64,000 bases of DNA, taken from NCBI GenBank assembly GCA_946540005.1, contig CAMNHY010000002.1:2780-66779 (forward strand), given 5' to 3'. Of the stretch, positions 9,586 to 63,678 are shown in pieces (position 1 is the stretch's first letter; each line of letters opens with the position of its first letter). A program made the position numbers and the translations under genes. The notes under the pieces are model-generated. The model did not search any database and was not told the origin of the DNA. It was given only the letters and a program-made list of their open reading frames with translations. This DNA comes from an uncultured Clostridium sp. (lineage in GTDB: Bacteria > Bacillota_I > Bacilli_A > Acholeplasmatales > Anaeroplasmataceae).

Positions 9586-9603
9586 TTTAAAACCTCCTTA
9601 AAT

Positions 9604-30622: not shown

Positions 30623-33062
30623 TTGCTAAGTCCTCCTTTTCTAATGATATTTCGCCGTTTGCGACCATAATACAGAAGTCTTGGAAGGAAAGAGATGGAT
30701 TAGTTTTCTTAAGTTCTTTAAATATTTTTAATATCTCAGTTTGACTTAACTTTGTATTTTTCTTTTTTATTTCTTTAATCTTTTCTTCTTTTGTCTCTTC
30801 TTTAACTTCTTCTTTAGTTTCTTCCTTAGGCTTTAACGCACTAAAGCCCCCGTTTTCTTTTGCTTCATTAACCTTCTTCATTAATGCGCTATTTCTTTTC
30901 TTAATATCATAGAAAATAGCATTTTCGTCGAAGAAATTATCTTCTAAATCTGATTGATCCATTTTACCAATCTTATAAAGTGGAACTTTAAAAGATGGAG
31001 TAAAATAAGTTTTAAGAGGGTAGTTACCAAAGGTTACAATAATTGAGTGTCCGATATCACCTGGGTGATTCAATCTTTGTAATTCAGATGGATATATTAA
31101 AGGACGAGTTTGTAATGATGTGGAATAATTCTTCTCACCATGAGCTGAACCACTTGTTGAAGATGTTTGAATTGTAATATTACCACATAATTCAGAATAT
31201 TCCTTACATGTACCCATATCGTTAGAACCGATAAACATCTTAATACCACAGTTACCTTTAATAATATCAGCAACATTATCACCATATACATTATTTAATT
31301 GTGAATAAGATTGAACAATCATTGTAAACCAAATTTTTCTAGAACGACCTACTGTGATAAATTTGTCAAATTTAGAAATCTTTGGCATATTACCAAATTC
31401 GTCCATGATGAAGTAGACATTTCTTGGTAATGCTAATTCTTGAGTTTCTGATGCAACTTTAATCAGCGTCTTATAAATATTTAATATAAAGATTGCAGCT
31501 AGATTGTGTCTAGTATCTTTTTCATCAGGAATTTTTAAAAATAAGGCTGTTGGGTGGTCTGCTAAAGCTTCTGCAGTAAAATCTGATGTAGAAGTTAATG
31601 CACACACACCAGCGTCATTAAATAGTACTAATTTGTCATATACAATTGACATATATGAAGCTCTTGTTGAAGGAGCTGCATCACAAACTTGTTTAGATAA
31701 TGAATAAGCCTTTGATAAAGGACTCCTACCTTTAAAATAATTTCTTAAATCTTCATAATCTTTAGTAGAATTTTGAAGAATCTTTGCTAAATTAAAGAAA
31801 TTAAATTTATCCTTTGTCATACCGTTTTCAGGATCTGTTGAATCCTCTAGCATCGCAAGTAATACAGCTAGTGTAATTGATCTAGCACCTTTTTCCCAAA
31901 GAGGATCTTTTTCATTCTCTACAGGAATTAATACAGATACTAAGTCATTTAAATCTTCATAAACTTCATCATATATTTTCTTTTTATAAACTTTAATATT
32001 GTTAACTAATCTTTGATAATCCTTATAAGCTTTACCATCAAATTCATACCACTCATTTAAATCTTCGTTATCCCCAATATTCTTATCAAGAGTTAATCCT
32101 GATTCGTAAATATTATCTACACGCTTGAACGCTTTCTTATATGCATTTCTATACTCTTCAAATGCATCCCATATACCATCTAATGGATTCCATCTATATG
32201 AAGAATATGTATCACGTAAATCTACAACCTTTACATCATATCCTCTATCTTGTAAAAATTGAGAATGAAGTGAGAATAATTCACCCTTAGGGTCAGTTAT
32301 TATCATTGATGAACCAGCTTTAGTCGCACCTAAAAGCTGAATCATAGGAGATACGAATGTAGTAGTTTTACCTGAACCAGTTGAACCGATAATTATAGAA
32401 TGGCAAGGTGAATTAAATAAAACTTGCATATCTTTTTTATTTTCATCAAGAGATGCCATTACAGGAATACCATCTTTACTAACAGTATTAAGTTGACTAT
32501 ATGTATAAGATTTAAATATAGTTTTCTTTTCTTTTGAAGTCATCCATCTTGAATTTTCTAAATTAGAATCTTTTACTTGTTTAAGCTTACCATTAGGTCC
32601 ATTTTTAGAAAATACGGAAATAAAGTTCTTATTTATTACAAAACAATATAATACAAATAATCCTAAGAATACTATTATTAAGAATAAATAGTATAATCCC
32701 GATACAATCATCTTATCAAAAGTACCAAGCCAATCGATAATTCCAAATTCAAATTTACAATCGAATAGGGCAAATAATAGATATGATAATATTACCGATA
32801 TTAACATAATAGATGTTATTACAAATAATATTTCTTGAAATCTACCTGACGCAAATTTTTGAGATGCAACTATGCATTGGAATAACATAAACGCTATAAA
32901 TATAGAGATCATCCATCTAAAATATGGTACTAGAGTAAAACTACCTGTTGCATCTACAAACATACCTCTAGTCTTTATTACTGGTATAGTTATTACATTT
33001 GCTAATATAAAGGAAATAATAATTACTAAGCATAATACATGTCTTTTTTTCATAATTATCAC
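30609..33062 (-). CDS. VirD4/TraG-family type IV coupling protein
   Basis: 817 aa with N-terminal TM helices, Walker A (GSTGSGKTT), Walker B-like YFIMDEFGNMPKI, and GRSRKIWFTMIVQSYSQL. Confidence 0.85.
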   Translation of the reverse strand: MIIMKKRHVLCLVIIISFILANVITIPVIKTRGMFVDATGSFTLVPYFRWMISIFIAFMLFQCIVASQKFASGRFQEILFVITSIMLISVILSYLLFALFDCKFEFGIIDWLGTFDKMIVSGLYYLFLIIVFLGLFVLYCFVINKNFISVFSKNGPNGKLKQVKDSNLENSRWMTSKEKKTIFKSYTYSQLNTVSKDGIPVMASLDENKKDMQVLFNSPCHSIIIGSTGSGKTTTFVSPMIQLLGATKAGSSMIITDPKGELFSLHSQFLQDRGYDVKVVDLRDTYSSYRWNPLDGIWDAFEEYRNAYKKAFKRVDNIYESGLTLDKNIGDNEDLNEWYEFDGKAYKDYQRLVNNIKVYKKKIYDEVYEDLNDLVSVLIPVENEKDPLWEKGARSITLAVLLAMLEDSTDPENGMTKDKFNFFNLAKILQNSTKDYEDLRNYFKGRSPLSKAYSLSKQVCDAAPSTRASYMSIVYDKLVLFNDAGVCALTSTSDFTAEALADHPTALFLKIPDEKDTRHNLAAIFILNIYKTLIKVASETQELALPRNVYFIMDEFGNMPKISKFDKFITVGRSRKIWFTMIVQSYSQLNNVYGDNVADIIKGNCGIKMFIGSNDMGTCKEYSELCGNITIQTSSTSGSAHGEKNYSTSLQTRPLIYPSELQRLNHPGDIGHSIIVTFGNYPLKTYFTPSFKVPLYKIGKMDQSDLEDNFFDENAIFYDIKKRNSALMKKVNEAKENGGFSALKPKEETKEEVKEETKEEKIKEIKKKNTKLSQTEILKIFKELKKTNPSLSFQDFCIMVANGEISLEKEDLANEKK

Positions 33063-48588: not shown

Positions 48589-49063
48589 TCAAAATACCTG
48601 ATAGTCTAATTGATTTATCCAATCTACCATCTTCATTGGATGTTCTTCTATTGCTTGTAATTCTGCATAATCTAAGTACATAGATACTAATCTATTTAAT
48701 ATTAGTACCTATATTACTTTTAACTCTATATCCAACAGCAATTATCATATCTAAATTATAATAAGCTACGTTATATATTTTCCCATCTAGGGCAGTAGTT
48801 CGATAAAATCGAACAACTGAATTTTTATCTAATTCCTCTTCCTTTAATATATTATTTATATGGAAACTCATTGTTGATTTTGAAATATTAAATAACTCAC
48901 ACAACTGTTTTTGACTTAGCCAAACTGTATTATTTTCAATTTTTACTTCAATTTTATCTTTTCCATCCTCAGTTTTATATATTACAATATTGCCCATTTT
49001 CTCATCCATAATATCACCAATTCTTTCTAACAATATTATGTCATGTTTATTATTCATAAACAA
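48589..49063 (-). pseudogene. rhuM: rhuM-family (virulence RhuM-like) pseudogene with a large internal deletion and a frameshift
   Basis: The N-terminal part (GNIVIYKTEDGKDKIEVKIENNTVWLSQKQLCELFNISKSTMSFHINNILKEEELDKNSVVRFYRTTALDGKIYNVAYYNLDMIIAVGYRVKS) matches the RhuM N-terminus and stops at 48692. Immediately after, in another frame (48589..48690), LVSMYLDYAELQAIEEHPMKMVDWINQLDYQVF matches the RhuM C-terminal region. The roughly 150 intervening residues are missing. Confidence 0.75.
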
Positions 49064-49986: not shown

Positions 49987-52900
49987 TTATTTATTAGAAT
50001 TTAAAATACCTTTTAATGTTATTTTTAATTGAGTATAATCTCTTGCGCATTCTCTAGGAATAAACAAAAGCTTAATATTGTGTTTTTCGCACATTTTCTT
50101 CTTATAATTATCTCTTTCAATTACATCTTGTCTACTTCTATGTTCAGGGCCATTTAACTCAATAATGGCTACAATCTTGTTATAATTAAATGCTCTTTCA
50201 TATATAACAAAATCGAAGCTTTGAGTATAATATAATCTATTTATAGTCGTATCATTTTTAAAGACATTTTTCATCTCAACTTCTTGTCTAACATAGCATT
50301 GTGTACTAATAACTGAGAATAGTTGGTCAATAGTCTCTTTAAAATCATTTTCTGATTTTGAAGATATTTCTCTAGTCCCAAGTGCTTCAGATTTAGGAGA
50401 TACATTTGTTACATTACACTGTCCATTAGTCTTAACATAATCAAATAATTCTCTCATATCATCTACACCTTTAGATAATTTTTTAACGGCATTGAGTGAA
50501 CCTAGCACCACTAACTTATCTTTTGATCTAGAGATAGCAACATTTATTAATTCTCTATTATTTTTTAACCATTCATATGTTTTTTCATAAGTGTTTTTTG
50601 TAATGGCTGTAGAAAATAAAATGACATTCTTTTGATCACCTTGGAATGCATGTACCGTACCAACATTTACATTTTGAATACCATTAATTTTTAAATAATG
50701 CTCGATGCAATCTTTTTGATGTACAAATGGAGTTATTACTCCAATATCTTCATTTGGATGTCCTTTTACATATTCAACTATCTTTTGAGCTTCTATGTTA
50801 GATACATTCTTTTGTGGCTCATTATTCTTTTCATCATCAATACTTGTATCTAATAATACTAATGGATTAGCTTCTCTAGATTTACTTCTAAGTTTTAATC
50901 TATTGTTGTAATATTTTTTATTGCAAAACGCAATAATTTTATCATTACAACGGTAGTGATAAGATAATAATGTTTCTTTATTAATAACGTCTATTGTTGC
51001 AAATGTAGTATAAATTGAATTATTAATATAATTATATTCATCAGCTACTCTAAATTTATCCATTAATTTTTTATTAATAGTAGGGTCTAATACCACTACA
51101 GGTCTTAATTGTTGTGGATCTCCAACAAGTACAATTCTTTCGCCACGTAAAATTGAAATTAATGCATTTGCAATATTACATTGTCCTGCCTCATCCATTA
51201 AGACATAATCAAATTGAGTCTTAGGACTTCCTAAATAAGTTGCGCTCATATTTGTTGTAATGATTATTGGGAATATTTCTTGGAAAGCTTTCAAATTAGA
51301 ATCATCAATTAAATAATCTTTAAAAGCTTTAATCCTTCTATTTTTATCATCCTCAGATTCAACTGGCATTTGTAATATATCTCTAAGAGTTGAATATTTA
51401 TTTCTATTAATCTTCTTTAATCTTTGAACAGTATCAAAATGAATAGACATAAATAATCTTCTAAAATCTATATTCATTAATTCCTTAAGCTTATCATCAT
51501 CTACTTCTATATGACCTAATTCATTTAATTCTTTTCTAACTTCTGCAATTTGAGCATCAAGTCTTATCTTCATCCATTCATCTTTAGTCTTTTCAATTAA
51601 TGCGTTTATAGCTTCAATTTTAGATAATAGTTCTTGTTGATGTTCATACTTTTCAAGAAGTTCTGTTAATCCTCTCATGGCAGCTTTACGCTCATTTTTT
51701 ATGTTTTGAATTGCATTCTCGTCAGCTTTTAAACCTGATGCACGCTCAATCATCTCATTAATATAATCTAGCGCTTCATTAATAGATTCAAAATTTCCAA
51801 TTCTAATTGCAGGAAATAATAATGGTACATTTTCTTTATACTTTAAAGATTTAATATCTTCGAATACTCCATCCATTGGAATATTATTGTTAGAAGTAAC
51901 TAAAGCGGTCTTATCGTTATAATAAATAGTTAAAATAAGATTTAATAATGTTTGAGTTTTTCCTGTACCAGGTGGACCTTGTACATATGATGCCGCAGAT
52001 TTCATTGCGCCATCGATTGCGTTTATTTGATCTATATTATATTTATCATCTACTACATATATTGGATAATTAATTTTTCTAACATTCTTAGGATTAGGAT
52101 TCCCAAAGAATGTATCTATAGGTATAGACATAGTTTCGGGATTAGAAATCATCTCTCTAATACCATTAAACTGTTCTCTTATATCGATAATAATATTTTT
52201 TGCTAAATAAACAATATATGGCTTAGAATCTAATATATTCTTATATGGCTTATTAGCATTATTGTTGTATTCTTGAATGATATTATGAATTTTTTGTTCA
52301 TTAGCGTCAAAATTTTCTAAAATGTTTAATGCATCTTCTGGAATAAATTTTGATATAGAATATATATTCTTGCTTTCAGTTTTACTAGAATCAAATGAAA
52401 ATTCCCTATTAATTATTGTATCCTTTGATGGAATTAAACATCTATTTTTAATATCTAATTTTAATTCTCTATATGCAAGTACATAAAGTCCTTTATCTGT
52501 TTCAATTGATAATCTATTCAAAGCTAAAATGGTTTCTATTTTATTATTTTTCTTTTTATCTTTCTTATTCATTAAAGCTAAGGATAATTCTTTAAATTGA
52601 TCTTCAGATAATTGATATTTATCATTTTCTAAAATTGTATCATTATCTATACCCTTAACTAAACCATATTGGCTTTTATATGGAACATTATCTAATTTGA
52701 AGCATTCTTCATAATAATCTAATATATCATCTCTATCCATATTGTATTGCAAGAATGCATAACTTTCAGGATATTTTGCTAAATTATCTAATAATTTTTT
52801 AGGTGTTACATGATATGTACCTTCAATTGCTTCAGCTGACAATATACCAGAATAATATATTTGTCTTCCTTCAGTCGATTCATTATACATAATATTAAAT

Positions 52901-53106
52901 GAATCAATATCAAATAATTCTAATCTATAATTGATATCATTTATACCAACCATAAAAGAAGTGATTTGATCACTCTTATTTTTATATTTAATTTTTAACC
53001 ATAAATTTTGATTTATAGCTTTACTAATCTCTCTAGAAATTGAATTATAATTAATATTTTCACTATCAATTTCTTCATTTGAATCTTTCTCTTTGACTTC
53101 TATCAT
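49987..53106 (-). CDS. SF1 (Upf1/DNA2-like) helicase fused to a C-terminal Vsr/DUF559/DUF2726-type endonuclease fold; Hhe-like defense candidate
   Basis: 1039 aa. Helicase motifs: I VQGPPGTGKTQT, II LMDEAGQC, III LVGDPQQLRPV, IV SYHYRC, V VHAFQGDQKNVILFS, VI INVAISRSKDKLVVLG. The C-terminus reads FDFVIY...VAIIELNGPEHRSRQDVIERDNYKKKMCEKHNIKLLFIP, an (D)-ExxG-H-D-K REase-like pattern. The first ~350 aa are unassigned. Confidence 0.8.
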   Translation of the reverse strand: MIEVKEKDSNEEIDSENINYNSISREISKAINQNLWLKIKYKNKSDQITSFMVGINDINYRLELFDIDSFNIMYNESTEGRQIYYSGILSAEAIEGTYHVTPKKLLDNLAKYPESYAFLQYNMDRDDILDYYEECFKLDNVPYKSQYGLVKGIDNDTILENDKYQLSEDQFKELSLALMNKKDKKKNNKIETILALNRLSIETDKGLYVLAYRELKLDIKNRCLIPSKDTIINREFSFDSSKTESKNIYSISKFIPEDALNILENFDANEQKIHNIIQEYNNNANKPYKNILDSKPYIVYLAKNIIIDIREQFNGIREMISNPETMSIPIDTFFGNPNPKNVRKINYPIYVVDDKYNIDQINAIDGAMKSAASYVQGPPGTGKTQTLLNLILTIYYNDKTALVTSNNNIPMDGVFEDIKSLKYKENVPLLFPAIRIGNFESINEALDYINEMIERASGLKADENAIQNIKNERKAAMRGLTELLEKYEHQQELLSKIEAINALIEKTKDEWMKIRLDAQIAEVRKELNELGHIEVDDDKLKELMNIDFRRLFMSIHFDTVQRLKKINRNKYSTLRDILQMPVESEDDKNRRIKAFKDYLIDDSNLKAFQEIFPIIITTNMSATYLGSPKTQFDYVLMDEAGQCNIANALISILRGERIVLVGDPQQLRPVVVLDPTINKKLMDKFRVADEYNYINNSIYTTFATIDVINKETLLSYHYRCNDKIIAFCNKKYYNNRLKLRSKSREANPLVLLDTSIDDEKNNEPQKNVSNIEAQKIVEYVKGHPNEDIGVITPFVHQKDCIEHYLKINGIQNVNVGTVHAFQGDQKNVILFSTAITKNTYEKTYEWLKNNRELINVAISRSKDKLVVLGSLNAVKKLSKGVDDMRELFDYVKTNGQCNVTNVSPKSEALGTREISSKSENDFKETIDQLFSVISTQCYVRQEVEMKNVFKNDTTINRLYYTQSFDFVIYERAFNYNKIVAIIELNGPEHRSRQDVIERDNYKKKMCEKHNIKLLFIPRECARDYTQLKITLKGILNSNK

Positions 53107-53402: not shown

Positions 53403-54836
53403 TTATTTTAATAAGAATTTATTACTATAACCAACTTTACCATTAAATAGTCTAGTAATTTTATCTAAGTCTTTATTTTCAGCAAAATAATTTGGATGAT
53501 TTATTACGCAATTTTTAACCGGATTTGCTAATAAATCTGTAAAATCATCATTATTTAAATAAAGTTTAGTGCATTGCACAAGACACGAACCATATCCATA
53601 AGGCTTACCATGTCCTATCTTTTGAAAATGATTTGAATCATTTCCTAATTCTATTGAAAAGATAAGTTTATCTAATTCTTCTTTAGTTAGATTTTCAAAA
53701 TAAATCTTACCATTAAAAATTACATTACTTTCATCAGATATATATTCAAAATAACCTACAACATTATCATTATTTTTAGCAACTTTACCATTGTAAGATT
53801 TAAAATTTAAATAATACTTTCTTCCAGCTAAACCTGGATTATCATCAAACTGATTAATAATATAATTTTTACCATTTTCAGGATGAGGATTTAAAGTAAC
53901 TAATTCGGTATAATCTTTTTTAACTTTACTATTAATTGGGGCTAAGAAATCAGTAAATCTTACTCTTGAAGATAGTGATGATTCGTTTGAAATATATCCA
54001 AATAGACTACATGCTGGGCATAAAGCGTTATCTGCTGTACATTTCAAGGAATCTCCAATTAAATCATTTAGACTATATTTTAGTTCTTCACGTGAAATAG
54101 ATAAATATATTTTTTTATCTCTCTTTGTATAATATGCAGGAATCCAAAAATGATTTTTTTCTTTTAATAAATTATATAAGTGCAAATTTTGCTCATCTAA
54201 ATTAATTGATTTTTCAAAAAACTTTTGTAGTTCTTCCGGTTGTTGGCAATTAATTTTAATAAATTTCCCAACAAAATTAAAGTATTGTATACCATCACTT
54301 TTAGAAAAAACCATCTTATGATTATTATCCTGTGAATAATATATTTGTTTCTTGTGATTGTATGTAAGGTTGGTTTTATATTCAATATAATCCTCGTAGT
54401 GTTTATTTCTTCTTAAATCTATCAATTTATTATCACTTGTACAATCAATTTGAATAGAATTATATACACCTTTTAATTTTCCCTTTTCAAATTCAACCAA
54501 ACATTCATTTGCGTAGATATTATCAAGATGTAAATCATTATTTACTGAGGATAAACATGAATTTGTAATTGTTTCAAAAACATTTCTAACAATACCTTTT
54601 ACTTCAGAACCTGGAATTGCATACTGTGAACCAATTTTAAATAGTTCATATTTTCCATTTATATTATTTCCAGGTATTATAAGTCTTGATTTAGGAGTTA
54701 TTGATGCTTCAATATAACCTGATAATGTACCTTTTGTATATTGACTTCTAATTACTTTCTTTAAAGGAATAAAATCATATGGATTAGTATTCTCTTGAGG
54801 TCTTTTAAATATCCTATTATTGTTTGCATATCTCAT
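53403..54836 (-). CDS. Type III RAMP protein (Cas7-like with a large insertion and CxxC element; Csm5/Cmr6/Csx10-type not resolvable by eye)
   Basis: 477 aa. RAMP hallmarks: AIPGSEVKGIVRNVFE, CPACSLFG, and the G-rich loop IGHGKPYGYGSC. RBS AGGGAGG precedes the start. Confidence 0.7.
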   Translation of the reverse strand: MRYANNNRIFKRPQENTNPYDFIPLKKVIRSQYTKGTLSGYIEASITPKSRLIIPGNNINGKYELFKIGSQYAIPGSEVKGIVRNVFETITNSCLSSVNNDLHLDNIYANECLVEFEKGKLKGVYNSIQIDCTSDNKLIDLRRNKHYEDYIEYKTNLTYNHKKQIYYSQDNNHKMVFSKSDGIQYFNFVGKFIKINCQQPEELQKFFEKSINLDEQNLHLYNLLKEKNHFWIPAYYTKRDKKIYLSISREELKYSLNDLIGDSLKCTADNALCPACSLFGYISNESSLSSRVRFTDFLAPINSKVKKDYTELVTLNPHPENGKNYIINQFDDNPGLAGRKYYLNFKSYNGKVAKNNDNVVGYFEYISDESNVIFNGKIYFENLTKEELDKLIFSIELGNDSNHFQKIGHGKPYGYGSCLVQCTKLYLNNDDFTDLLANPVKNCVINHPNYFAENKDLDKITRLFNGKVGYSNKFLLK

Positions 54837-54840
54837 ACTA

Positions 54841-55146
54841 TTATTCCTCCCTTAGCAAAAAAGGTGCAGTAGAAGTTATATATAAAATACCATCCGAATT
54901 AAAATTATAATAATTCCTCATGATATATTTATTTATACCTGAATCATTCTTAAAGTTTGGATTAATCAAAATTGTTTCATCAAAGAATTTTTCATCTTTG
55001 ACTAAAGATATTAATCCATAACCTTTGACATAATGATAAGACTTTTCACTATCGAAGACATAAGCCTCAAGTACATCTGATTCAAATTCAGATATTTCTT
55101 TGTTAATAAATTCTATTTTATCTAAATAATATATTAAACTTACCAT
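54841..55146 (-). CDS. Small (101 aa) protein of unknown function embedded in the type III effector operon
   Basis: Strong RBS (AAAGGAGG, 6-nt spacer). It is separated by only 1-4 nt from both flanking RAMP genes. It is not obviously all-helical, so it does not look like a typical Cas11. Confidence 0.65.
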   Translation of the reverse strand: MVSLIYYLDKIEFINKEISEFESDVLEAYVFDSEKSYHYVKGYGLISLVKDEKFFDETILINPNFKNDSGINKYIMRNYYNFNSDGILYITSTAPFLLREE

Positions 55147-55147
55147 A

Positions 55148-56317
55148 TTATGCCTCCTTTAATGAACTAATTAATTCATTTATTTCAACACCAATAAGAG
55201 ATATATCCCCAATATTTTCAAATATTCCTCTTCCAATTGATGCTTCTCCACCTAGATTTACTAATCCAGCGCCAATATCTCTAAGTGCAAGATAATACAA
55301 TGCTGCAATAACTTTATTGCCGCCTCTAATTCTTACACTCAATGTTCCTATAGAGTTTTCCGTAGGTACAAATACTTTTTCAGTAATTAGTGCCCCATCT
55401 ATTACAGCCCCACTAAAATGATCAATCTTATTACGCGTAATTATCTCATTTTTTCCATCTAAATATAATTCATCAACAACCGTTTTCTTAATTTCATCTT
55501 TTAAAGAATCTAAGTCTATATTCTTTAGTTTTGGCGCATACACATCAATGATTCTATGCTGTAATACACCATTAATTGATGTTCCAGGAACTAAAGCCCT
55601 ATTATTATTTCCCATCAATTGAGAATAATCATAGTCTAGAATCTCGCTATATTCTCTAACGATTAGTGGACTAATAAGCTTTACTTTTAAACTTAATAAA
55701 ATATCACCATCAGTTATTAAATTACTATTAATTTGATTAATCAAATCATTTTGATTTAATTCTTCTCCACAGAAATTCATATAGTCATGATAATCTTTAA
55801 TTTCCTTGAAGTATAAATGTGTAATCTTTTGTATACCATAACCACGATTTTGCTTATAACCTAATCTAAATAAACCAGATTGGATATTATTAGCTACATC
55901 AATAATAGCTTCTTGAACATCTATAAGATTATTATTTACATCATATTCAATAAAGAATGACCACTCTTGATTATCTAAAATGACCTCTGTGTCATATTTA
56001 GCTCCCTTTACAGTTCTTTTATTACTATCTAATTGAATACCATCTCTTGTAGATTCTTTTACATCAGCTGTAAATATACCATCAGAAATAAATAATCTAG
56101 ATTCATCTTTAATCTCTTTAGCATCTGTAACAATACCGAATACATTTTTACTATATTTACTCTTAGAAAAGAATGAACCAGCAATTGAGGATGCAGGAAT
56201 AAAAGGAGTATTATCAGAATATCTAATAATATCATGATCAGTATTAGATGAATAAGCTGCTCCAATTGATAATGTTGACTTATTAGTAAGTACAAATCTA
56301 TATATTAGTTTATGCAT
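55148..56317 (-). CDS. Type III double-RAMP protein (Cas7-Cas7 fusion)
   Basis: I prefer the ATG at 56317 (MHKLIYRF), with AGGAAGGA about 8 nt upstream; the track start is 56326. There are two RAMP modules. The first has FIPASSIAGSFF with G-loop LGYKQNRGYG. The second has LVPGTSINGVLQHR with G-loop LGGEASIGRGIFE. Confidence 0.75.
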   Translation of the reverse strand: MHKLIYRFVLTNKSTLSIGAAYSSNTDHDIIRYSDNTPFIPASSIAGSFFSKSKYSKNVFGIVTDAKEIKDESRLFISDGIFTADVKESTRDGIQLDSNKRTVKGAKYDTEVILDNQEWSFFIEYDVNNNLIDVQEAIIDVANNIQSGLFRLGYKQNRGYGIQKITHLYFKEIKDYHDYMNFCGEELNQNDLINQINSNLITDGDILLSLKVKLISPLIVREYSEILDYDYSQLMGNNNRALVPGTSINGVLQHRIIDVYAPKLKNIDLDSLKDEIKKTVVDELYLDGKNEIITRNKIDHFSGAVIDGALITEKVFVPTENSIGTLSVRIRGGNKVIAALYYLALRDIGAGLVNLGGEASIGRGIFENIGDISLIGVEINELISSLKEA

Positions 56318-58247
56318 TATCTTCATCCTTCCTTTCTCTCTTGCTATACTTATATAATGTAAATAATTCTCTAACAGCTCTTATCTTTTCTAAATCAGTA
56401 AATTTAGAGATACTATTTTCAAAAGACTTTAATATTTCATTTATTTTTCCTTTTAATGATTCTTTCTTAATAAGTTCAATATTTGATTTAAATGAATTAG
56501 GGCCCTCATATTTAGTAATTAATTTATCGCTCGACAATGAAATTATCTTAGATATTTCAGTCATCCCTAGATCAATATTAGAATTTTGTATAAAGAAATT
56601 ATAGCTAGCTTCTAAAATTCTAACTTCTCTACTTTTTATATTATTTGGAGTAGAACTAACTTTAACTTCTTTATTTATCGCATCTTCTAGATTATTTAAA
56701 TCTACATTAAATATTGTAAACTCACCAAATCCTTTAAACAAATCACACGATATAGCATTAACTTTTGTTAAAGATTTAAACAAAATATATGATCCCGGTG
56801 TAACAACTGTTTCAATATTTCTTGGTAAATTCCTTAACATATTGTATCCACCAATATTTTTGAAATTAATTGAAAAAGAATTAACATCATTATTACTAAT
56901 TTGTTTTATTATATCTTGCTGATTTAGTATTGGAAATCCTTCATTTTTAAATAAAGACTCTGATTTAAAAATAACAAGATTACCCATATTATTCTTCTTA
57001 GTTTCAACATATTTTGCACTAATAATACATTTACCATATTGATTATATTTAGATTTACCTAAATATATTTCTTTAGAATTACACTTTGAAAATAATTCAT
57101 CTAAATCTTCTTGTTTACCTGTAATTCTGCATACAAAATGTTGTCCTTTAGTTAATGAGTAGAATTGATAAAATTTACCTAAATCAGTTCTATTTCCGAT
57201 TGTTTTATATAAATGATAATTATATTCAAATTCAGGTTCTATAATTTCAATATTCTTAAAGTCGCCTTTATGTCTTGTTACATATTCTAAAGTCTCTTCT
57301 TTTATATATTTTCCATCAAGGCTTTCTGTTTTACGATTGTTTTGATTTTCAGTTTTAACTAAATTATTAACATATATTGTACTACCGTCTTTATCCTTAT
57401 TTTTGACCCTGCGGATATAAGAAGGTACAGGAAGATATGTATTATAATCTTCGTCAGAAATGTATGCATTACTAAATCTTAATCCTTCATTGTTATTTAA
57501 GAATAGTCTGTCAAAAACTTTTTGATTAAAATTTTTTGTTTTTGCATAAGCATTTGCAAAATATCCATAAATTGTAGAACCCGGAATATAATCTAAACTT
57601 CTATCTTTAATCGCACCATTGATCATAAGATTATCCAAATTTGTGATATGAAGTTCAACTGTAGAAGTTTTCTTTCCAAGAGGTAAAAGCATATGAATCT
57701 TATTATCAATCTCTTGAAGAGTCATTTTAACATAGCCTAATCCTCTGTTTCTATGTACACCTAGATGGTGTACTAATGAAATTGCTTCAATTAGAAATTG
57801 TAAATATTTCTCATCAAATTCAAGAATTGATTCAAATTCAGTACCTTTGTTTACTACGTTAATTGTGCGCAAGGATCCATCTTTAACTTCTCCTGTCGTT
57901 TGGTCAATTGATGTAAATGTTCTTAAAGATACATACTTATCCTTAATAATATTAGAAGGTTCACTTGTATCTTTATGTTTAATAACCGCATCCTTAATGA
58001 TAAGATTTGCAGAGGTTGAAGAATTAGCAATTCCACAAGCTAATTCTTTTCCAAATAAATTATTAAAGTATTCTTGATTATTTATTTCTCTAGCACTGTC
58101 TTTAATTAAGCCTTTAATACGTCTAGCTGGAATATATGGATAACCTAATGAATCTGTGCATACATCTAAATCAACAGCAAGTCCTTTACCAATACCGCTT
58201 GCTATAGCTGCATCACTTTTTAATTCTATAATTAATTTAGCTCTCAT
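56310..58247 (-). CDS. Type III multi-domain RAMP fusion (Cas7-like N-terminal RAMP, second Csx10/Cas5-like RAMP, helical C-terminal tail that may be Cas11-like)
   Basis: About 645 aa. The ATG at 58247 (MRAKLIIEL) follows the cas10 stop by 1 nt; the track start is 58259. RAMP 1 has YIPARRIKGLIKDSAREI, NLFGKE and LGVHRNRGLGYV. RAMP 2 has DYIPGSTIYGYFANAY and LGKSKYNQYGKC. The last ~110 aa look helical and K/E-rich. Confidence 0.7.
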   Translation of the reverse strand: MRAKLIIELKSDAAIASGIGKGLAVDLDVCTDSLGYPYIPARRIKGLIKDSAREINNQEYFNNLFGKELACGIANSSTSANLIIKDAVIKHKDTSEPSNIIKDKYVSLRTFTSIDQTTGEVKDGSLRTINVVNKGTEFESILEFDEKYLQFLIEAISLVHHLGVHRNRGLGYVKMTLQEIDNKIHMLLPLGKKTSTVELHITNLDNLMINGAIKDRSLDYIPGSTIYGYFANAYAKTKNFNQKVFDRLFLNNNEGLRFSNAYISDEDYNTYLPVPSYIRRVKNKDKDGSTIYVNNLVKTENQNNRKTESLDGKYIKEETLEYVTRHKGDFKNIEIIEPEFEYNYHLYKTIGNRTDLGKFYQFYSLTKGQHFVCRITGKQEDLDELFSKCNSKEIYLGKSKYNQYGKCIISAKYVETKKNNMGNLVIFKSESLFKNEGFPILNQQDIIKQISNNDVNSFSINFKNIGGYNMLRNLPRNIETVVTPGSYILFKSLTKVNAISCDLFKGFGEFTIFNVDLNNLEDAINKEVKVSSTPNNIKSREVRILEASYNFFIQNSNIDLGMTEISKIISLSSDKLITKYEGPNSFKSNIELIKKESLKGKINEILKSFENSISKFTDLEKIRAVRELFTLYKYSKRERKDEDNA

Positions 58248-58248
58248 A

Positions 58249-59826
58249 TTATTCCCCACTTTCCTTTTTATAATCTATTCCATTAATCAAATCCAATAAT
58301 GATGTTGCATCATAATATTTAGCTTTATCATTGATGAATGGATTATAAATTTCTTCATCTTTACCTAATGCATTCAATTGATTTCTACTCTTTAATCTAA
58401 CAAATAATATCTTAGAATAAATAGGATCTTTTTCATATGTATTACGGATTTCTTTTAAAACTCCCCTACTTATTTTTAGACTATTATCATTTTTAAATTT
58501 GTTAAGATAATCTAATAATGAGCTTAATTTAACTTCTTCAGGGACATTTACGTTATCATCGACAACAAGATATGGTTTTAAATACAAGTGATTAAAATCT
58601 TTCCTTCTATTGATAAGATTCTTTGTAACACCTGTATCGCAAATCTCATAGTCTAACCATGATGTAGGTCTATTGAATCCTTCAATTTTAGTGTTAACTC
58701 TATAAAATTTAGCTTTAGACTTAGCTATACTACATACTTCTTCTGCCATTTCATAAGCCCTATGGAATGGGTAATGAATATGTGTATAACAAATTCCAGC
58801 ACAACATGAGAATCTATTATCCTTCTTTAAAAAATCAAAATTTTCATTAGATATATCATTTGATGGGTACAAAGACTCTAAAGATAACATATCCATTATT
58901 TTTTTAGTAATTGATAGGCTTAATCTAGAATCACAAATGAATGTAATATCATCTCCTGAATTTAAAATTAAACGGCAATTATTTTCGTAATTTTTAAGAA
59001 TGTCCTTAACCTTATTAACAAAAACATCATCAATCTTTTTTGAAATATCACGAGATATTGCAAGTTCTTGGCTAAATGATAATTTAATATTCTTAAAAGC
59101 ATTTAGATAGTTTGAAATCATTGCGCCCATATCATTACCATCAATATGTACAACTGCAATCATTCTCTTATCGGGTTCATTACCATTATCATCTTTAACT
59201 AGATCGTCAATAAACTTAATTGAAGATATTTGTTCCATATTCTTATAATGTTCGAGCTTAAGTTTACTTAGTAATGTTATATCTCTATTATCGTATGTAC
59301 CAATAATAGGAGTGCTATAAATTGGATCTAGCTTAGAAATAGGAAGATAATTATTTATAACTAGTCTTGCCATTCTTTTCTTAACTTCATCAAGTTCCTT
59401 CTTTGCCTCATTACGAAGATTAAAGAAACTCTTAGTGTTTTCATCAATTGTTGCCTTAGCGTAAGCTAACTGAAGACTTCCTGTTTCAAACAAAAATGCC
59501 TCTTGAAGTGCATTATTATATTCTATAAATAATTGATTATCCCCATGATAAAATATGAATAAATTCCCAGCACCAAGTGCAACATATTCTATATGATTAT
59601 CTTTAAAACTATTTAAATAAAAATTAATATTATCGTTAACATCTTTAATATGATTCTTCCAATTAGTATCAACACTAATACCATATTTTTTTGCAACCAC
59701 TGCAAGCTTAGAATCAAGATAAGTTCTAACCATATCTGATGCAGCAGTTATTTCTTTTATCTTATTAGATTGAAAGATGTATTCTTGAATACGTCTTACA
59801 TCATAAATAACTAAATAATTGACCAT
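58249..59826 (-). CDS. cas10: Minimal Cas10-like large subunit (two palm domains, SGDD motif, no HD domain, no Zn-finger)
   Basis: 525 aa. The protein starts directly with palm-1-like VIYDVRRIQEYIF...KEITAAS...LGAGNLFIFY. Palm 2 has AVVHIDGNDMG and NSGDDITF (SGDD at 58948..58959), followed by SCCAGICYTHIHYPFHRAYEMAEE. Confidence 0.75.
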   Translation of the reverse strand: MVNYLVIYDVRRIQEYIFQSNKIKEITAASDMVRTYLDSKLAVVAKKYGISVDTNWKNHIKDVNDNINFYLNSFKDNHIEYVALGAGNLFIFYHGDNQLFIEYNNALQEAFLFETGSLQLAYAKATIDENTKSFFNLRNEAKKELDEVKKRMARLVINNYLPISKLDPIYSTPIIGTYDNRDITLLSKLKLEHYKNMEQISSIKFIDDLVKDDNGNEPDKRMIAVVHIDGNDMGAMISNYLNAFKNIKLSFSQELAISRDISKKIDDVFVNKVKDILKNYENNCRLILNSGDDITFICDSRLSLSITKKIMDMLSLESLYPSNDISNENFDFLKKDNRFSCCAGICYTHIHYPFHRAYEMAEEVCSIAKSKAKFYRVNTKIEGFNRPTSWLDYEICDTGVTKNLINRRKDFNHLYLKPYLVVDDNVNVPEEVKLSSLLDYLNKFKNDNSLKISRGVLKEIRNTYEKDPIYSKILFVRLKSRNQLNALGKDEEIYNPFINDKAKYYDATSLLDLINGIDYKKESGE

Positions 59827-59840
59827 TATACTACCTCTTT

Positions 59841-60506
59841 CTATTTCTTTATCTCTATCATACCAAATCCTTGGCTATTTCTATCACCAAGCCCTACATC
59901 TAAAATGCATTTAAGGACTTTAGGATCAGCAATAATTGTTCCCTCTAAATAATAAGCTTCAATAATAATTAAATCCTTAAATTTGGTAAGATATTTCTTT
60001 TCTTTTTCCACATTTAAAATAATTGAGACCTCACGCCCTAATTTATGAGATAAATTTCTATTTATATATTCTAAAAATTTAGGGTCACTTGGCTTATAAT
60101 AAATTGTCTTTTTTTCTTCTGTTGTATGAATTGTAACAGGAGATAACGTTGTAAACTCAATCATTGATGATGTAATACAATCATCAATAACATCAATATC
60201 CGAACAATAAACATTTTGCCTAAAGAATGATAAATGTTTATGTAAAAGACCGGAGGTAATCGATATTAAGAAATTTAAATCATATGTTGATAAATAAAAA
60301 TACATTAAGTTATCAAATACTAAAGTATTCTCAAGTTTCGTTTTTTTTCCAAATAATTCAGAAAAATTAAATACGCTTATTCCCTTTAAGTCGTGATAAT
60401 AAGTACTATTTTTTTCTAGATTATTATAGATAAATCCTTGAATAATATGTTGATATCCAACCGGTATAACTAACTTTTCAAATGTCAGGGTAATTTTTAC
60501 TCTCAT
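59841..60506 (-). CDS. cas6: Cas6 CRISPR RNA endoribonuclease
   Basis: 221 aa with a RAMP fold signature and the C-terminal G-rich loop GLGDRNSQGFGMIEI. It lies between cas2 and cas10. Confidence 0.75.
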   Translation of the reverse strand: MRVKITLTFEKLVIPVGYQHIIQGFIYNNLEKNSTYYHDLKGISVFNFSELFGKKTKLENTLVFDNLMYFYLSTYDLNFLISITSGLLHKHLSFFRQNVYCSDIDVIDDCITSSMIEFTTLSPVTIHTTEEKKTIYYKPSDPKFLEYINRNLSHKLGREVSIILNVEKEKKYLTKFKDLIIIEAYYLEGTIIADPKVLKCILDVGLGDRNSQGFGMIEIKK

Positions 60507-60570
60507 ATATTCTCTCTAATTCTTTCATTTTTTATTATTATAGCATTTTTTAATAAAATGTTTAATAACT

Positions 60571-60675
60571 TCACATTTTATTTTTATGGTTTGTTCTATA
60601 TTCAATATATGTATCAACACATTCAAATATAAGATCAACAGCTATATTAACAATATTTTTTAATTTTTTAAACAT
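60571..60675 (-). CDS. Possible small ORF (34 aa) between cas2 and cas6
   Basis: Not in the ORF track. GAGGTG lies 5 nt upstream of the ATG. The ORF reads MFKKLKNIVNIAVDLIFECVDTYIEYRTNHKNKM* and sits downstream of the duplicated promoter-like element at 60706..60747. There is no homology evidence. Confidence 0.3.
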   Translation of the reverse strand: MFKKLKNIVNIAVDLIFECVDTYIEYRTNHKNKM

Positions 60676-60705
60676 AAAATCACCTCACGAATACAAACTA
60701 ATTTT

Positions 60706-60747
60706 AATATAAAACTATATTTGTTTACACGACAATTATGTCTATCT
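60706..60747 (-). promoter_or_regulatory. Promoter/operator-like element (copy a): AGATAGACATAATTGTCGTGT, -35-like TTGTCG, 18 nt, TATATT
   Basis: It is near-identical over about 21 nt to copy b at 62048..62068 and contains the inverted repeat GACA-N4-TGTC overlapping the -35-like hexamer. Confidence 0.5.
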
Positions 60748-60760
60748 AAAAGAAACTATT

Positions 60761-61015
60761 TTAACTCACAAAATATAAATCTTGAGAATTATAATCTAAA
60801 ATAGATAAATAAGTCTTCTTAGGTACAGTAATTAATAAGAGCCTATCAGATTCATTATTTAATTTATTTATATTTTTCTGCAAACTATTAAATTCACTTT
60901 GAGTTAATTCTCCTAAAAATAACGAATTTTGCGCATGAAACAAATATTTCTTAAATAATCTTAAATATTTCCCATCTCTTTTTTTATCAACATCATATGC
61001 AGCTATTACATACAT
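60761..61015 (-). CDS. cas2: Cas2
   Basis: I prefer the ATG at 61015 (MYVIAAYDV), with AAGGAG 7 nt upstream; the track start at 61054 overlaps cas1. YDV...LFKKYL...QNSLF is a typical Cas2 pattern. Confidence 0.8.
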   Translation of the reverse strand: MYVIAAYDVDKKRDGKYLRLFKKYLFHAQNSLFLGELTQSEFNSLQKNINKLNNESDRLLLITVPKKTYLSILDYNSQDLYFVS

Positions 61016-61019
61016 ATCT

Positions 61020-61964
61020 CTACTCCTTATAAAAGGATATTTGTCTTTGTTCATTTAATAAATATCTTCTTAATTTAATACAATCGCTTAATATAAGATC
61101 TTTATATTTAATTCTTTTATTATGCTTTGTAACAGTAGAATTAATTTTTCTTTCATATACTTCAATTATTTTTTTCTTTGAATTTGGTTTGATTATACAC
61201 ATATTGGTATTGTAAATAAAATCATCAGAATTAATAATCTTATTATTAATTAAAGTAAAAATTACTCTATCTACAATTAATGGCTTATATATTTCTGAAA
61301 TATCATATTCTAAACTACTTTTTCTATCTGTTGCAGAATGCAAAAAAGCTATTGAAGCATTTAAATTTGAACATAATATATTAATCAATGTATCTTTATA
61401 TATTAGTGAATTTATAAATGATATTAATGAATTAATTGGATCTGTAGGTGGATTCATTATTCTTGATTTAAATTCAAAATCTGGATTCTTAATTATTTCA
61501 TTAAAATATGAATAATATAATTTTCTTATTTTAGCTTCACATAATAATAAAATATTTATATCATTCTTATTCTTTATTTCACTTTTCAATTTAGAAAATA
61601 ATGTATTTGTTGTATCAATATGATAGCTATGCAATAGAGTTATCATATTATGCCAAACGGATTTTAAAATAGATTTAGCTATACTTATTCTTTTCTTTGA
61701 AATATACGCCTTAGTCATAGCAACTGTTATATCACCTTGTGATAAATTATCTGTTAGAAGATAATAATTATTTTTATTAAAAGTAAATAGTCTTATGTCT
61801 AATTCATTTAATTTTCTTATTAGATTAGTATCAAATAATACATTTTTAAATAGAAATATATTATTGACACTTTGATATGGAATTGAAATTGATTTATCCA
61901 TAGTTTTAAATATTAAGCCATCATCATAAATAAGTTCCCCATCTTCATATAGATATATATTCAT
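61020..61964 (-). CDS. cas1: Cas1 integrase
   Basis: I prefer the ATG at 61964 (MNIYLYEDG), with GGAGG 6 nt upstream; the track start is 62051. Conserved Cas1 blocks: LLLCEAKIRKLYY and FLHSATDRKSSLEYDISEIYKPLIVDRV, which carry the E, H, D/E catalytic positions. Confidence 0.85.
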   Translation of the reverse strand: MNIYLYEDGELIYDDGLIFKTMDKSISIPYQSVNNIFLFKNVLFDTNLIRKLNELDIRLFTFNKNNYYLLTDNLSQGDITVAMTKAYISKKRISIAKSILKSVWHNMITLLHSYHIDTTNTLFSKLKSEIKNKNDINILLLCEAKIRKLYYSYFNEIIKNPDFEFKSRIMNPPTDPINSLISFINSLIYKDTLINILCSNLNASIAFLHSATDRKSSLEYDISEIYKPLIVDRVIFTLINNKIINSDDFIYNTNMCIIKPNSKKKIIEVYERKINSTVTKHNKRIKYKDLILSDCIKLRRYLLNEQRQISFYKE

Positions 61965-62026
61965 ATAACCTCCATATAATCCATTCTTACTAAGAAATAT
62001 TTTAGTTATTGCTACATCTATAATAT

Positions 62027-62068
62027 ATACTATTAAACAACTTATAAACATGACAATTGTGTCTATCT
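62027..62068 (-). promoter_or_regulatory. Promoter/operator-like element (copy b): AGATAGACACAATTGTCATGT, -35-like TTGTCA, 18 nt, TAGTAT
   Basis: It lies between the last CRISPR repeat and cas1. It contains GACA-N4-TGTC and matches copy a at 60727..60747. Confidence 0.5.
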
Positions 62069-62146
62069 CATAATAAAAATTAGTACCCCTAAGTATATCT
62101 AGTTTTCTCTAGTCCAACTTTTGGGGTACTCAACATTAAATGAACA

Positions 62147-63223
62147 TTTATTATTCCTTAAAGGTACTGTTGTTACTCAAAGGAAATTAAGCAAACAAAG
62201 GACGGAAAGAATGTCTCTATTCCTTAAAGGTACTTTAGTTACTTAGAGTGCTTAAAGAGAACTAGAGAATTGTTAAAGAGTCTCTATTCCTTAAAGGTAC
62301 TTTAGTTACACAGGTTATCTCACAAGCCGACACCATTGAAGAATTGTCTCTATTCCTTAAAGGTACTTTAGTTACGTATTTGTTAATAATAAACATTACT
62401 ATGTTAAACCTGTCTCTATTCCTTAAAGGTACTTTAGTTACTAACTGAAGAATAATGATAAAGCGAAAGGCATAAAATGTCTCTATTCCTTAAAGGTACT
62501 TTAGTTACAAAACTGCTGATAATCTTATATATCAATTAGTTAGAGTCTCTATTCCTTAAAGGTACTTTAGTTACTAAAGTAAGTGCTTCAGAAGCAGAAA
62601 ACAAACATTTGTCTCTATTCCTTAAAGGTACTTTAGTTACAATTGGAGGATATATTATGGCAAAACAAAAAACTAGTCTCTATTCCTTAAAGGTACTTTA
62701 GTTACAATGTGCAAGTGGTATTCACTTCTTTAGAACTAGGTCTCTATTCCTTAAAGGTACTTTAGTTACCTATCGAGGCTTTCCCAAATTTTGATATTGT
62801 TATGTCTCTATTCCTTAAAGGTACTTTAGTTACTAGGACAAACACTAACGATTTTAAGAATTTGGTCAAGTCTCTATTCCTTAAAGGTACTTTAGTTACC
62901 TACTGGTGAGAAGATTCAAACAAAGTGGACAGCAAGTCTCTATTCCTTAAAGGTACTTTAGTTACTGAAGGTGAAAAGCTTGAAGCAAAGATTGTTGAAT
63001 TGTCTCTATTCCTTAAAGGTACTTTAGTTACGTTACATCCGTGTTGAGCGTAATCAAAATTATTCTGTCTCTATTCCTTAAAGGTACTTTAGTTACATAG
63101 ACAACATCATAGAGGAATACCTTTATAAAAGTCTCTATTCCTTAAAGGTACTTTAGTTACTATCTAAACTCAAGTCTTATTCTTGCTAGACTAGTCTCTA
63201 TTCCTTAAAGGTACTTTAGTTAC
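62147..63223 (-). CRISPR. CRISPR array: 17 repeats of 30 nt and 16 spacers of 33-37 nt
   Basis: The plus-strand repeat GTCTCTATTCCTTAAAGGTACTTTAGTTAC occurs 16 times identically. These copies start at 62213, 62280, 62346, 62412, 62479, 62545, 62611, 62676, 62740, 62804, 62870, 62936, 63002, 63067, 63131 and 63194. A degenerate cas-proximal copy lies at 62147..62176 (TTTATTATTCCTTAAAGGTACTGTTGTTAC). I infer minus-strand transcription for three reasons. The degenerate repeat is at the low-coordinate end. An AT-rich leader lies at the high-coordinate end. The minus-strand repeat ends ...AATAGAGAC, resembling type I/III 8-nt 5-prime tags. Confidence 0.97.
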
Positions 63224-63465
63224 AATACTTTTTGTAATATATATTACATTTAGTATATAACCCAACTTTATTTTATCATTTTTATTATCTTAATCAATAA
63301 AATCTTTCATTTTTATAATTAAATATTGTCTAAATTCTATTCATTTTTGCTTGTTTTTTATTACAACTTTTATTTACAAAATAAAACTCATTATATATTT
63401 TACTCAATTATTATGCAAAAAAAATATTTAAAATGCTATATTACATTTAATGATTATTATAAAAA
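63224..63465 (-). promoter_or_regulatory. Putative CRISPR leader
   Basis: An AT-rich, ORF-free 240-nt stretch abuts the non-degenerate end of the array. I did not map a promoter. Confidence 0.5.
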
Positions 63466-63678
63466 TCAAGAGGCGCTCGCAATAAGCACCTCTTGATGGG
63501 CAAGTTCGCTAATCTTCAACACATAATACAAACTTGGTTCATACTGACCATTCTCGTATCTAGAAATAGTACGAGAACTAATGCCAGTATATTCCTCAGC
63601 TTGTTCAAGCGTTAAGCCAGCTTGCTGGCGTAGTTGCTTAACAACTACATTATAATTATTATGTTTTAAATTGATCAT
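63466..63678 (-). CDS. XRE-family helix-turn-helix transcriptional regulator
   Basis: I prefer the ATG at 63678 (MINLKHNNY), with GGAGGA 7 nt upstream. The HTH reads LRQQAGLTLEQAEEYTGISSRTISRYENGQYEPS. The gene is visibly more GC-rich than its surroundings. Confidence 0.8.
   Translation of the reverse strand: MINLKHNNYNVVVKQLRQQAGLTLEQAEEYTGISSRTISRYENGQYEPSLYYVLKISELAHQEVLIASAS

Follow-up and report, generated by a model that had tools for sequence, protein, structure and literature searches.

Organisation of the locus

An uncultured Clostridium sp. (GenBank assembly GCA_946540005.1) carries a type III CRISPR-Cas locus on contig CAMNHY010000002.1, towards the end of a stretch of 64,000 nucleotides that is referred to here as the window. 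In the direction of transcription the locus consists of an AT-rich leader, a CRISPR array, cas1, cas2, a short open reading frame (ORF), cas6, cas10, a gene for a RAMP fusion, a double RAMP gene, the gene for a 101 aa protein and a further RAMP gene, all of them on the minus strand (Table 1). This is the order given in the original prediction, which was made from the sequence of the window and which held that the genes did not obviously fit any described subtype. Judged from profile matches and from comparison with a solved complex, the locus is a complete and compact type III-Dv system (subtype III-D), and as such a new member of a described architecture. Its five effector genes correspond gene by gene, and in identical order, to the published III-Dv operon of cas10, cas7-cas5-cas11, cas7-2x, csx19 and cas7-insertion that is represented by CRISPR2 of Synechocystis sp. 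PCC 6803 (PDB 8S9T-8S9X; PMC11026444), so that the supposed misfit to the known subtypes does not stand.

The assignment is carried by two kinds of match. For every effector protein the best PADLOC match is a III-D profile, in most cases over the full length, and all four large effector proteins match the respective chains of 8S9T, which for three of the four are the best or only match in the PDB. These results agree with the earlier placement of the nearest relatives in subtype III-D and its fused derivatives, as well as with the recognition of the RAMP subunits as fusions. The single-sequence E-values against the Synechocystis chains range from 2e-13 to 2e-4, and sequence identity between the two systems is low.

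Table 1. Features of the type III-Dv locus in the order in which they would be transcribed. Positions refer to the window, except those marked L001, which refer to a stretch of the source contig that continues past the window edge; values after profile or chain names are E-values.
Feature	Position	Strand	Matches and remarks
139 aa orphan protein	L001:2960-3379	same as cas genes	between the gene for the 844 aa protein and crn4
crn4, 105 aa (predicted ring nuclease)	L001:3381-3698	same as cas genes	Crn4b 9r7b_A 3.1e-12; Crn4a 9sma_A 5.8e-8
771 aa protein	L001:3747-6062; C-terminal 78 codons at 63765-64000 of the window	minus	cut by the window edge
HTH_3 (Xre-type) helix-turn-helix regulator, 75 aa	63466-63693	minus	PF01381 2.9e-14; directly upstream of the leader; also called on the source contig
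Terminator-like 14-bp hairpin with T-run	63465-63497	minus	closes the upstream accessory/HTH transcription unit
AT-rich leader	63227-63460	minus	promoter-like TTTGCA-18-TATAAT at 63419-63390
CRISPR array	62152-63226	minus	16 identical 30-nt repeats and 1 degenerate terminal repeat; 16 spacers of 33-37 nt
cas1 (type I-B-like)	61020-62051	minus	PF01867 3.9e-58; PADLOC Cas1b 8.7e-71
cas2	60761-61054	minus	best PADLOC match Cas2b; 84 aa product with start at 61015 in the source record
34 aa ORF between cas2 and cas6	60571-60675	minus	called in the source record; no family match
cas6 (Cas6b-like CRISPR RNA endoribonuclease)	59841-60506	minus	TIGR01877 9.4e-28; PADLOC Cas6b 1.3e-42
cas10, 525 aa, HD-less	58249-59826	minus	PADLOC Cas10d 1.8e-79 over residues 4-515, about full length
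cas7-cas5(csx10)-cas11 fusion, 649 aa	56310-58259	minus	PADLOC Cas5_IIId 8.5e-67 over residues 8-615
cas7-2x (two fused Cas7 domains), 392 aa	55148-56326	minus	PADLOC Cas7_IIId 3.2e-60 over residues 2-371
csx19, 101 aa	54841-55146	minus	PADLOC Csx19 7e-6 and 4.8e-5
cas7-insertion (TIGR03986-type RAMP), 477 aa	53403-54836	minus	PADLOC Cas7_IIId 2.9e-54

The effector proteins and their relatives

When GTDB was scanned with a single genome for each species, 420 loci with relatives of this Cas10 were recovered, mostly from Bacillota, and the 80 best of these were compared together with loci found via metagenomic relatives. Gene order and strand are the same in all 74 related loci in which the four large genes were detected, and most of the compared loci have a small ORF in the Csx19 slot. 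The closest Cas10 among the GTDB species representatives shares 41% identity with the protein described here. The other four effector proteins (649, 392, 101 and 477 aa) are at the small end of their family size ranges, and the total effector set of 2,144 aa is among the smallest III-Dv sets of the approximately 80 loci compared. The large subunits measure 525, 649, 392 and 477 aa as against 575, 791, 522 and 795 aa in Synechocystis, where the four together come to about 2,680 aa.

Cas10 is a 525 aa protein composed of a palm 1 domain that starts at residue 4, a palm 2 domain and a helical C-terminal domain, and it contains no CxxC motifs. The PADLOC Cas10d profile, which it matches almost end to end, is itself only 462 positions long, and a single-sequence search of the PDB links the protein to Synechocystis chain 8S9T_C (2.3e-13). 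The earlier description of a small, HD-less Cas10 that begins with its palm domain and lacks CxxC pairs is thus confirmed, and the SGDD motif lies exactly where it had been placed (58948-58959, residues 290-293), downstream of the predicted DGND strand that forms part of HIDGND at residues 227-232. What has to be given up is the view that the protein is unusually small. The 42 relatives in the family alignment are mostly of 478-578 aa, with one of 650 aa, and palm 1 begins no more than 28 residues from the N-terminus in all 42 of them; therefore none has an HD domain, and an HD-less Cas10 of 480-580 aa is the norm of the family. An HD domain is present in only 3% of III-D Cas10 proteins (PMC11229360), and the Cas10 of the Synechocystis III-Dv system, likewise HD-truncated and short at 575 aa, has an active palm and makes cyclic oligoadenylate (cOA) that activates Csx1 (PMC11026444).

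The catalytic motifs of the family point in the same direction. Residues Q14, S30, G85 and G87 as well as HIDGN and GDD are invariant in the 42 relatives, and the position preceding GDD is occupied by Ser, Ala and Gly in 13 relatives each. Since the three residues are equally common, SGDD, which corresponds to GGDD in Synechocystis Cas10, is a normal variant of the family. Both the SGDD motif and the small size of Cas10 would therefore be family norms under purifying selection and not oddities, and the palm is predicted to be cyclase-competent.

The 649 aa protein encoded downstream of cas10 is a predicted fusion of Cas7, Cas5 (Csx10) and Cas11. Its N-terminus matches the PADLOC Cas7_IIId profile at residues 7-182 (5.7e-32), and the TIGR02674 model for Csx10 matches below its threshold. 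A profile built from 29 members of the fusion family aligns with the Cas7-Cas5-Cas11 chain 8S9T_A at 3e-52, covering chain residues 4-712 of 791. The invariant D30, which aligns with Synechocystis D26, is the predicted catalytic aspartate of the Cas7 part. The original prediction listed Cas5 and Cas11 as lacking, which is correct in that neither has a gene of its own; the components themselves appear to be present as domains of the fusion, the Cas11 alignment being weak.

Cas7-2x is composed of two fused Cas7 domains and matches a PADLOC Cas7_IIId profile of 417 positions, and its best match in the PDB is the corresponding Synechocystis chain, 8S9T_D. In Synechocystis the active-site aspartates of the Cas7 domains are D26 in the fusion and D33 and D246 in Cas7-2x. 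The catalytic aspartate is conserved here in all three active sites, with D30/D32 and D233 of Cas7-2x being kept in 88-91% of 75 sequences. The adjacent 101 aa protein occupies the position of Csx19, and an iterated profile derived from it recovers a single ORF from every one of 77 loci; all of these ORFs that were checked are found in the slot between cas7-2x and cas7-insertion.

Cas7-insertion is the last protein of the operon, and its insertion is much shorter than that of its relatives (477 aa in all, as against 570-780 aa). The TIGR03986 model gives 161.3 bits against a cut-off of 161.35, that is 0.05 short. Its strongest matches in the PDB are to the C-terminal Cas7 of the III-E effector Cas7-11, also known as gRAMP (5e-14), and the match to 8S9T_E is weaker. 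The III-E effector is a single polypeptide that has neither Cas10 nor Cas5 and that signals via the Csx29 protease. An assignment to III-E was rejected because the locus encodes five separate effector proteins including Cas10, and the gRAMP models of NCBIfam match only partially, with 90.7 bits against a cut-off of 700.

Subtype III-D2, which comprises Cas7x3, Cas7-5, Cas10, CorA and toxin-antitoxin (TA) components (PMC13294483), resembles the locus in its small HD-less Cas10 with palm 1 first and in its fused Cas7 and Cas5 subunits, and both are placed as intermediates on the evolutionary path to III-E. The triple Cas7 fusion, the CorA effector and the signalling via S-adenosylmethionine-AMP (SAM-AMP) that characterise III-D2 are not seen here; conversely, III-D2 lacks Csx19 and a separate Cas7-insertion. 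An assignment to III-D2 was rejected in view of the double Cas7, the separate Csx19 and Cas7-insertion, and the absence of CorA from the window and from L001.

Accessory genes and predicted cOA signalling

The window stops at position 64000, inside a gene, and the source contig, a metagenomic scaffold of 76 kb (ENA ERZ28612978, scaffold_456) recognised by its identical Cas10 sequence, was read for a further 5.8 kb beyond this point (stretch L001). On the strand of the cas genes, the region ahead of the leader encodes, in order, an 89 aa ORF, an 844 aa protein, a 139 aa protein, a 105 aa protein, a 771 aa protein and the HTH regulator. The genes for the 105 aa and 844 aa proteins are located 3.5-7 kb upstream of the leader and thus outside the window.

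The 105 aa protein aligns through residues 3-103 with residues 10-115 of Crn4b, which amounts to the full length, and matches the PADLOC family Unk_01 with an E-value of 1.1e-29. In 2025 Crn4 was described as the ring nuclease of those III-D loci in which Csm6-2 is present (PMC12830947). The catalytic residues of Crn4a from Actinomyces procaprae are T13, H15 and R112; the threonine, histidine and arginine are conserved here as T7, H9 and R90, which are predicted to be catalytic and are invariant in the family. By homology, the 105 aa protein is a Crn4 ring nuclease.

The 844 aa protein is the probable partner of Crn4. Its predicted secondary structure runs from an α/β region to a helical region and then through a second α/β and a second helical region. 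It contains two Rx4H motifs, R309-H314 and R779-H784, which are invariant across three family members and fall into the predicted helical regions at positions proportional to those of the HEPN1 and HEPN2 sites of Csm6-2. Two members of the family give weak CARF matches, to Csa3 (0.0033 and 0.013) and to CARF3 (6e-4), and these different profiles meet on the same N-terminal α/β domain. When a model of the protein with a predicted local distance difference test (pLDDT) score of 45 was compared by Foldseek with 350,542 chains, the top match was A. procaprae Csm6-2 (9w3u_A, E-value 5.4e-4) and most of the matches that followed were CARF proteins. A word-indexed homology search returned the protein itself only; when 1.8 billion representative proteins were searched exhaustively, two remote homologues and one fragment were added. 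A Crn4 homologue adjoins all three members of this family and cas genes adjoin two of them, the member in L001 lying beside the III-Dv module and that in L006 beside cas2. CARF-HEPN proteins are also the commonest accessory family near the relatives of this Cas10, with 16 matches of the Csx1 type and 15 of the Csm6 type among 117 neighbouring ORFs in 72 loci. The 844 aa protein is accordingly put forward as a good candidate for a cOA-activated CARF-HEPN RNase.

A similar combination is known from the III-D loci of the A. procaprae type, in which a III-D module is accompanied by a single-chain protein of about 800 aa with a CARF-HEPN-CARF-HEPN layout and by a small adjacent Crn4, or Unk01 (PMC11229360, PMC12830947, PMC13187428; PDB 9W3U, 9R7B, 9SMA). 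The layout predicted here is similar. ApCsm6-2 has no detectable sequence similarity to the 844 aa protein, and the arginine and histidine of its HEPN1 site are 73 residues apart, whereas both HEPN-like motifs of the 844 aa protein are contiguous Rx4H motifs. In contrast to the A. procaprae-type loci no CorA was found, and the Crn4 encoded here is nearer to the Crn4b subfamily, whose published partner is Can2 or for which none is known among the effectors. In Synechocystis, too, the III-Dv system is accompanied by Cas6, by an adaptation module and by accessory nucleases of the CARF-HEPN kind, the latter being Csx1 and Csm6 in place of a fused Csm6-2-like protein and Crn4.

The reading that best accounts for these data, and one that is likely correct as a whole, is that of a complete III-Dv system with cOA signalling, in which the upstream 844 aa protein serves as the RNase and Crn4 resets the system. 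If the solved complex of Synechocystis is taken as a guide, Cas6 would cut the precursor of the CRISPR RNA (crRNA), and the five effector proteins, present in one copy each, would assemble on a single crRNA. The complex would then bind a complementary transcript and cleave it at three positions spaced by 6 nt, with D30 of the fusion and D30/D32 and D233 of Cas7-2x as the cutting residues. It may be inferred from the conserved residues and the gene neighbours that the binding of a non-self target induces the palm domains of Cas10 (HIDGN, SGDD) to make cOA, which in turn would activate the fused CARF-HEPN-CARF-HEPN-like RNase. The activated RNase is expected to degrade RNA non-specifically and to arrest the infected cell, and the adjacent Crn4 would reset the system by degrading the cOA signal.

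Several observations weigh against this interpretation. Scans of the 844 aa protein with Pfam, NCBIfam and PADLOC gave no significant match to CARF, HEPN, Csm6 or Csx1, and neither phmmer nor a profile of the three family sequences matched a Csm6-2 chain among all PDB chains. The AlphaFold models of the protein are of low confidence, with a pLDDT of 37 from the single sequence and 45 from the three-sequence alignment, and Foldseek with the former returned CARF proteins mixed with generic Rossmann folds. The family is exceedingly small, with only three members in 1.8 billion representative proteins. The gene for the 771 aa AAA-protease, the HTH gene and a terminator-like hairpin are interposed between the accessory genes and the array. 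Within the effector complex, the helical C-terminal region of the fusion that would represent Cas11 is aligned to 8S9T_A at low per-residue confidence, and palm 1 of Cas10 carries the substitutions G28A (GAS to AAS) and G86A (GGGN to GAGN) at two positions that are glycine in 40 of the 42 relatives. Lastly, none of the 16 spacers matched a protospacer in 50,697 phage genomes and none of three spacers used as exact patterns had a match in IMG/VR.

The role of the accessory genes could also differ in part from that outlined above. It is conceivable, albeit rather unlikely, that the 844 aa protein represents a rare lineage in which a CARF-HEPN-CARF-HEPN chain arose by an independent fusion, possibly with another cOA specificity, and/or that the 771 aa and 139 aa proteins constitute a protease arm of the system. 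The 771 aa protein is made up of an uncharacterised, beta-rich N-terminal region of 280 aa, an AAA+ domain similar to that of CbbX/SpoVK, and a protease domain of the trypsin-like type. Its gene lies on the same strand between crn4 and the HTH gene and leader, its N-terminal domain could serve as a sensor, and proteases, namely CalpL, SAVED-CHAT and Csx29, are among the known type III effectors, all of which would suit a CRISPR-linked effector that acts instead of or beside the 844 aa protein, with or without the 139 aa orphan. The chances of such a role are nonetheless slim. Scans with Pfam, NCBIfam and PADLOC detected no CARF or SAVED signal in the 771 aa protein, and its homologues, AAA-AAA-trypsin proteins of about 1100 aa of which some have a Macro domain, are widespread in gut metagenomes and are found on their own; of two that were examined one is located among housekeeping genes and the other adjoins BREX, neither being near CRISPR. 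None of the other 80 loci of the Cas10 family contains the gene. The 771 aa protein may be an unnamed defence gene, and it is likelier to be an independent gene of a defence island than a part of the CRISPR-Cas system. Both it and the 139 aa protein were rejected as core components, as they are absent from the other 80 loci even by iterated profiles; the 139 aa protein has no library match, and the other loci that were retrieved, L005 and L006 among them, contain no homologue of it.

The original prediction found neither a CARF or SAVED effector nor a ring nuclease, and this is true of the window; on the source contig, by contrast, both Crn4 and a Csm6-2-like candidate are encoded. As the window stops inside the accessory cluster, the apparent lack of an effector and of a ring nuclease is an artefact of the window edge. 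An undescribed type III subtype that has no signalling partner, and that works by RNA cleavage alone or with a merely structural Cas10, is accordingly very improbable. The absence of CARF, SAVED and ring nuclease genes from the 64-kb window, the absence of CARF genes from the precomputed Pfam lists of the related loci L002-L004 and the SGDD motif in place of GGDD would all accord with such a subtype. The architecture, though, is identical to that of the described III-Dv systems, the residues of the cyclase do not vary, and within the family SGDD occurs as often as GGDD. Moreover, Crn4 and the Csm6-2-like gene are found on the same strand just past the window edge, and a ring nuclease would be purposeless without a cOA signal. 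Both outcomes that had been named in advance as speaking against an effector-less new subtype were in fact observed, namely a clean typing by profiles to a known architecture and an effector that had been missed.

There is equally little to recommend a messenger other than cOA, such as SAM-AMP or SAM-AMP2 as in III-D2, acting on another partner: although the III-D2 Cas10, which makes SAM-AMP, is also small and HD-less with palm 1 first, and although G28A and G86A in the palm 1 motifs are unusual, no genes for CorA, NrN, DEDD or SAM lyase were found in the window or L001, the subunits are Cas7-2x, Csx19 and Cas7-insertion and not Cas7x3, the neighbouring genes encode a ring nuclease for cOA and a CARF-like protein, and the III-Dv prototype makes cOA.

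Array, adaptation module and genomic surroundings

The CRISPR array is transcribed in the same direction as the cas genes, since the degenerate terminal repeat (62152-62182) lies beside cas1, at the leader-distal end, and the AT-rich leader is at the opposite end. The repeat, which reads GTAACTAAAGTACCTTTAAGGAATAGAGAC on the minus strand, is unstructured, and its 3' end is akin to the ...GAAAC/GAGAC ends from which cleavage by Cas6 leaves a 5' tag of 8 nt. The promoter-like site in the leader is a consensus match only, and such sites are not enriched relative to shuffled sequence. On the transcribed strand pyrimidines make up 58% of the spacers and are in the majority in 12 of the 16, as compared with coding strands that are 56% purine in this genome. 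Spacer 9 (62645-62679) gives a transcript that is the reverse complement of GGAGG, a ribosome-binding site, with ATGGCAAAACAA after it, and is thus antisense to a ribosome-binding site and an ATG start codon. The composition of the spacers suggests selection for crRNAs that are antisense to mRNAs, and the spacers are consistent with RNA targeting.

The adaptation and processing genes cas1, cas2 and cas6 are of the I-B-like type, their best PADLOC profiles being Cas1b, Cas2b and Cas6b, and are located upstream of cas10, whereas in Synechocystis the corresponding genes are downstream of the operon. The nearest relatives, L002-L004, with about 40% Cas10 identity, have cas6, a reverse transcriptase-Cas1 fusion gene (RT-Cas1) and cas2 downstream of the operon. 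By this comparison effector and adaptation modules have been shuffled, with an I-B-like set taking the place of the RT-Cas1 set of the relatives. The 34 aa ORF between cas2 and cas6 has no support as a genuine gene and may instead occupy the promoter region of the cas6-cas10 operon. A promoter-like TAAACA-16-TGnTATAAT sequence is present at 60564-60537, just downstream of this ORF and upstream of cas6.

The sequence of the window is AT-rich with a G + C content of 27%. This value raised the question of a code-4 (Mycoplasma-type) genome, which was rejected as all genes are long ORFs under table 11. Directly downstream of the effector operon, at 49987-53106 on the minus strand, a 1039 aa superfamily 1 (SF1) helicase (AAA_11/AAA_12) with a C-terminal DUF2726 is encoded, of which the best defence-library matches are Mokosh MkoA/MkoC and Hhe. 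It is followed by a RhuM-family fragment at 48692-49063. The SF1 helicase-DUF2726 protein was rejected as a core component, since even iterated profiles did not detect it in the other 80 loci of the Cas10 family, and together with the RhuM fragment it looks like the context of a defence island.

Further into the window, at 17733-20399 and 30609-33062 on the minus strand, are genes for a P-loop ATPase of the VirB4/TraG type and for a coupling protein of type IV secretion (T4SS-DNA_transf, 4.8e-55). In view of these genes the CRISPR locus would be part of a conjugative element or adjoin one; in Synechocystis the III-Dv system is located on a plasmid. A tandem series of four ORFs of 849-899 aa and an ORF of 2545 aa, at 7036-17584 and 22985-30622 on the minus strand, have no Pfam match at E<=1e-4; their products may be proteins of the mobile element that are exposed on the surface or associated with conjugation. 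The nearest relatives carry other genes directly upstream of cas10, which may be alternative accessory modules: VWA-VWA-PP2C phosphatase-Ser/Thr kinase genes at L004:5801-9955, and genes for SLFN_AlbA_2 and HATPase_c_4 proteins at L002:6905-8735 and L003:8578-9882.

Overall, what appeared to be a new type III subtype without an effector is corrected to a standard III-Dv system that was cut by the boundary of the window. The compactness of its effector set could be of interest to engineers of programmable RNA nucleases. Furthermore, the pairing of a Csm6-2-like protein with Crn4 would be extended to an AT-rich, gut-type bacterium, by way of a protein family whose connection to Csm6-2 does not emerge from sequence searches.

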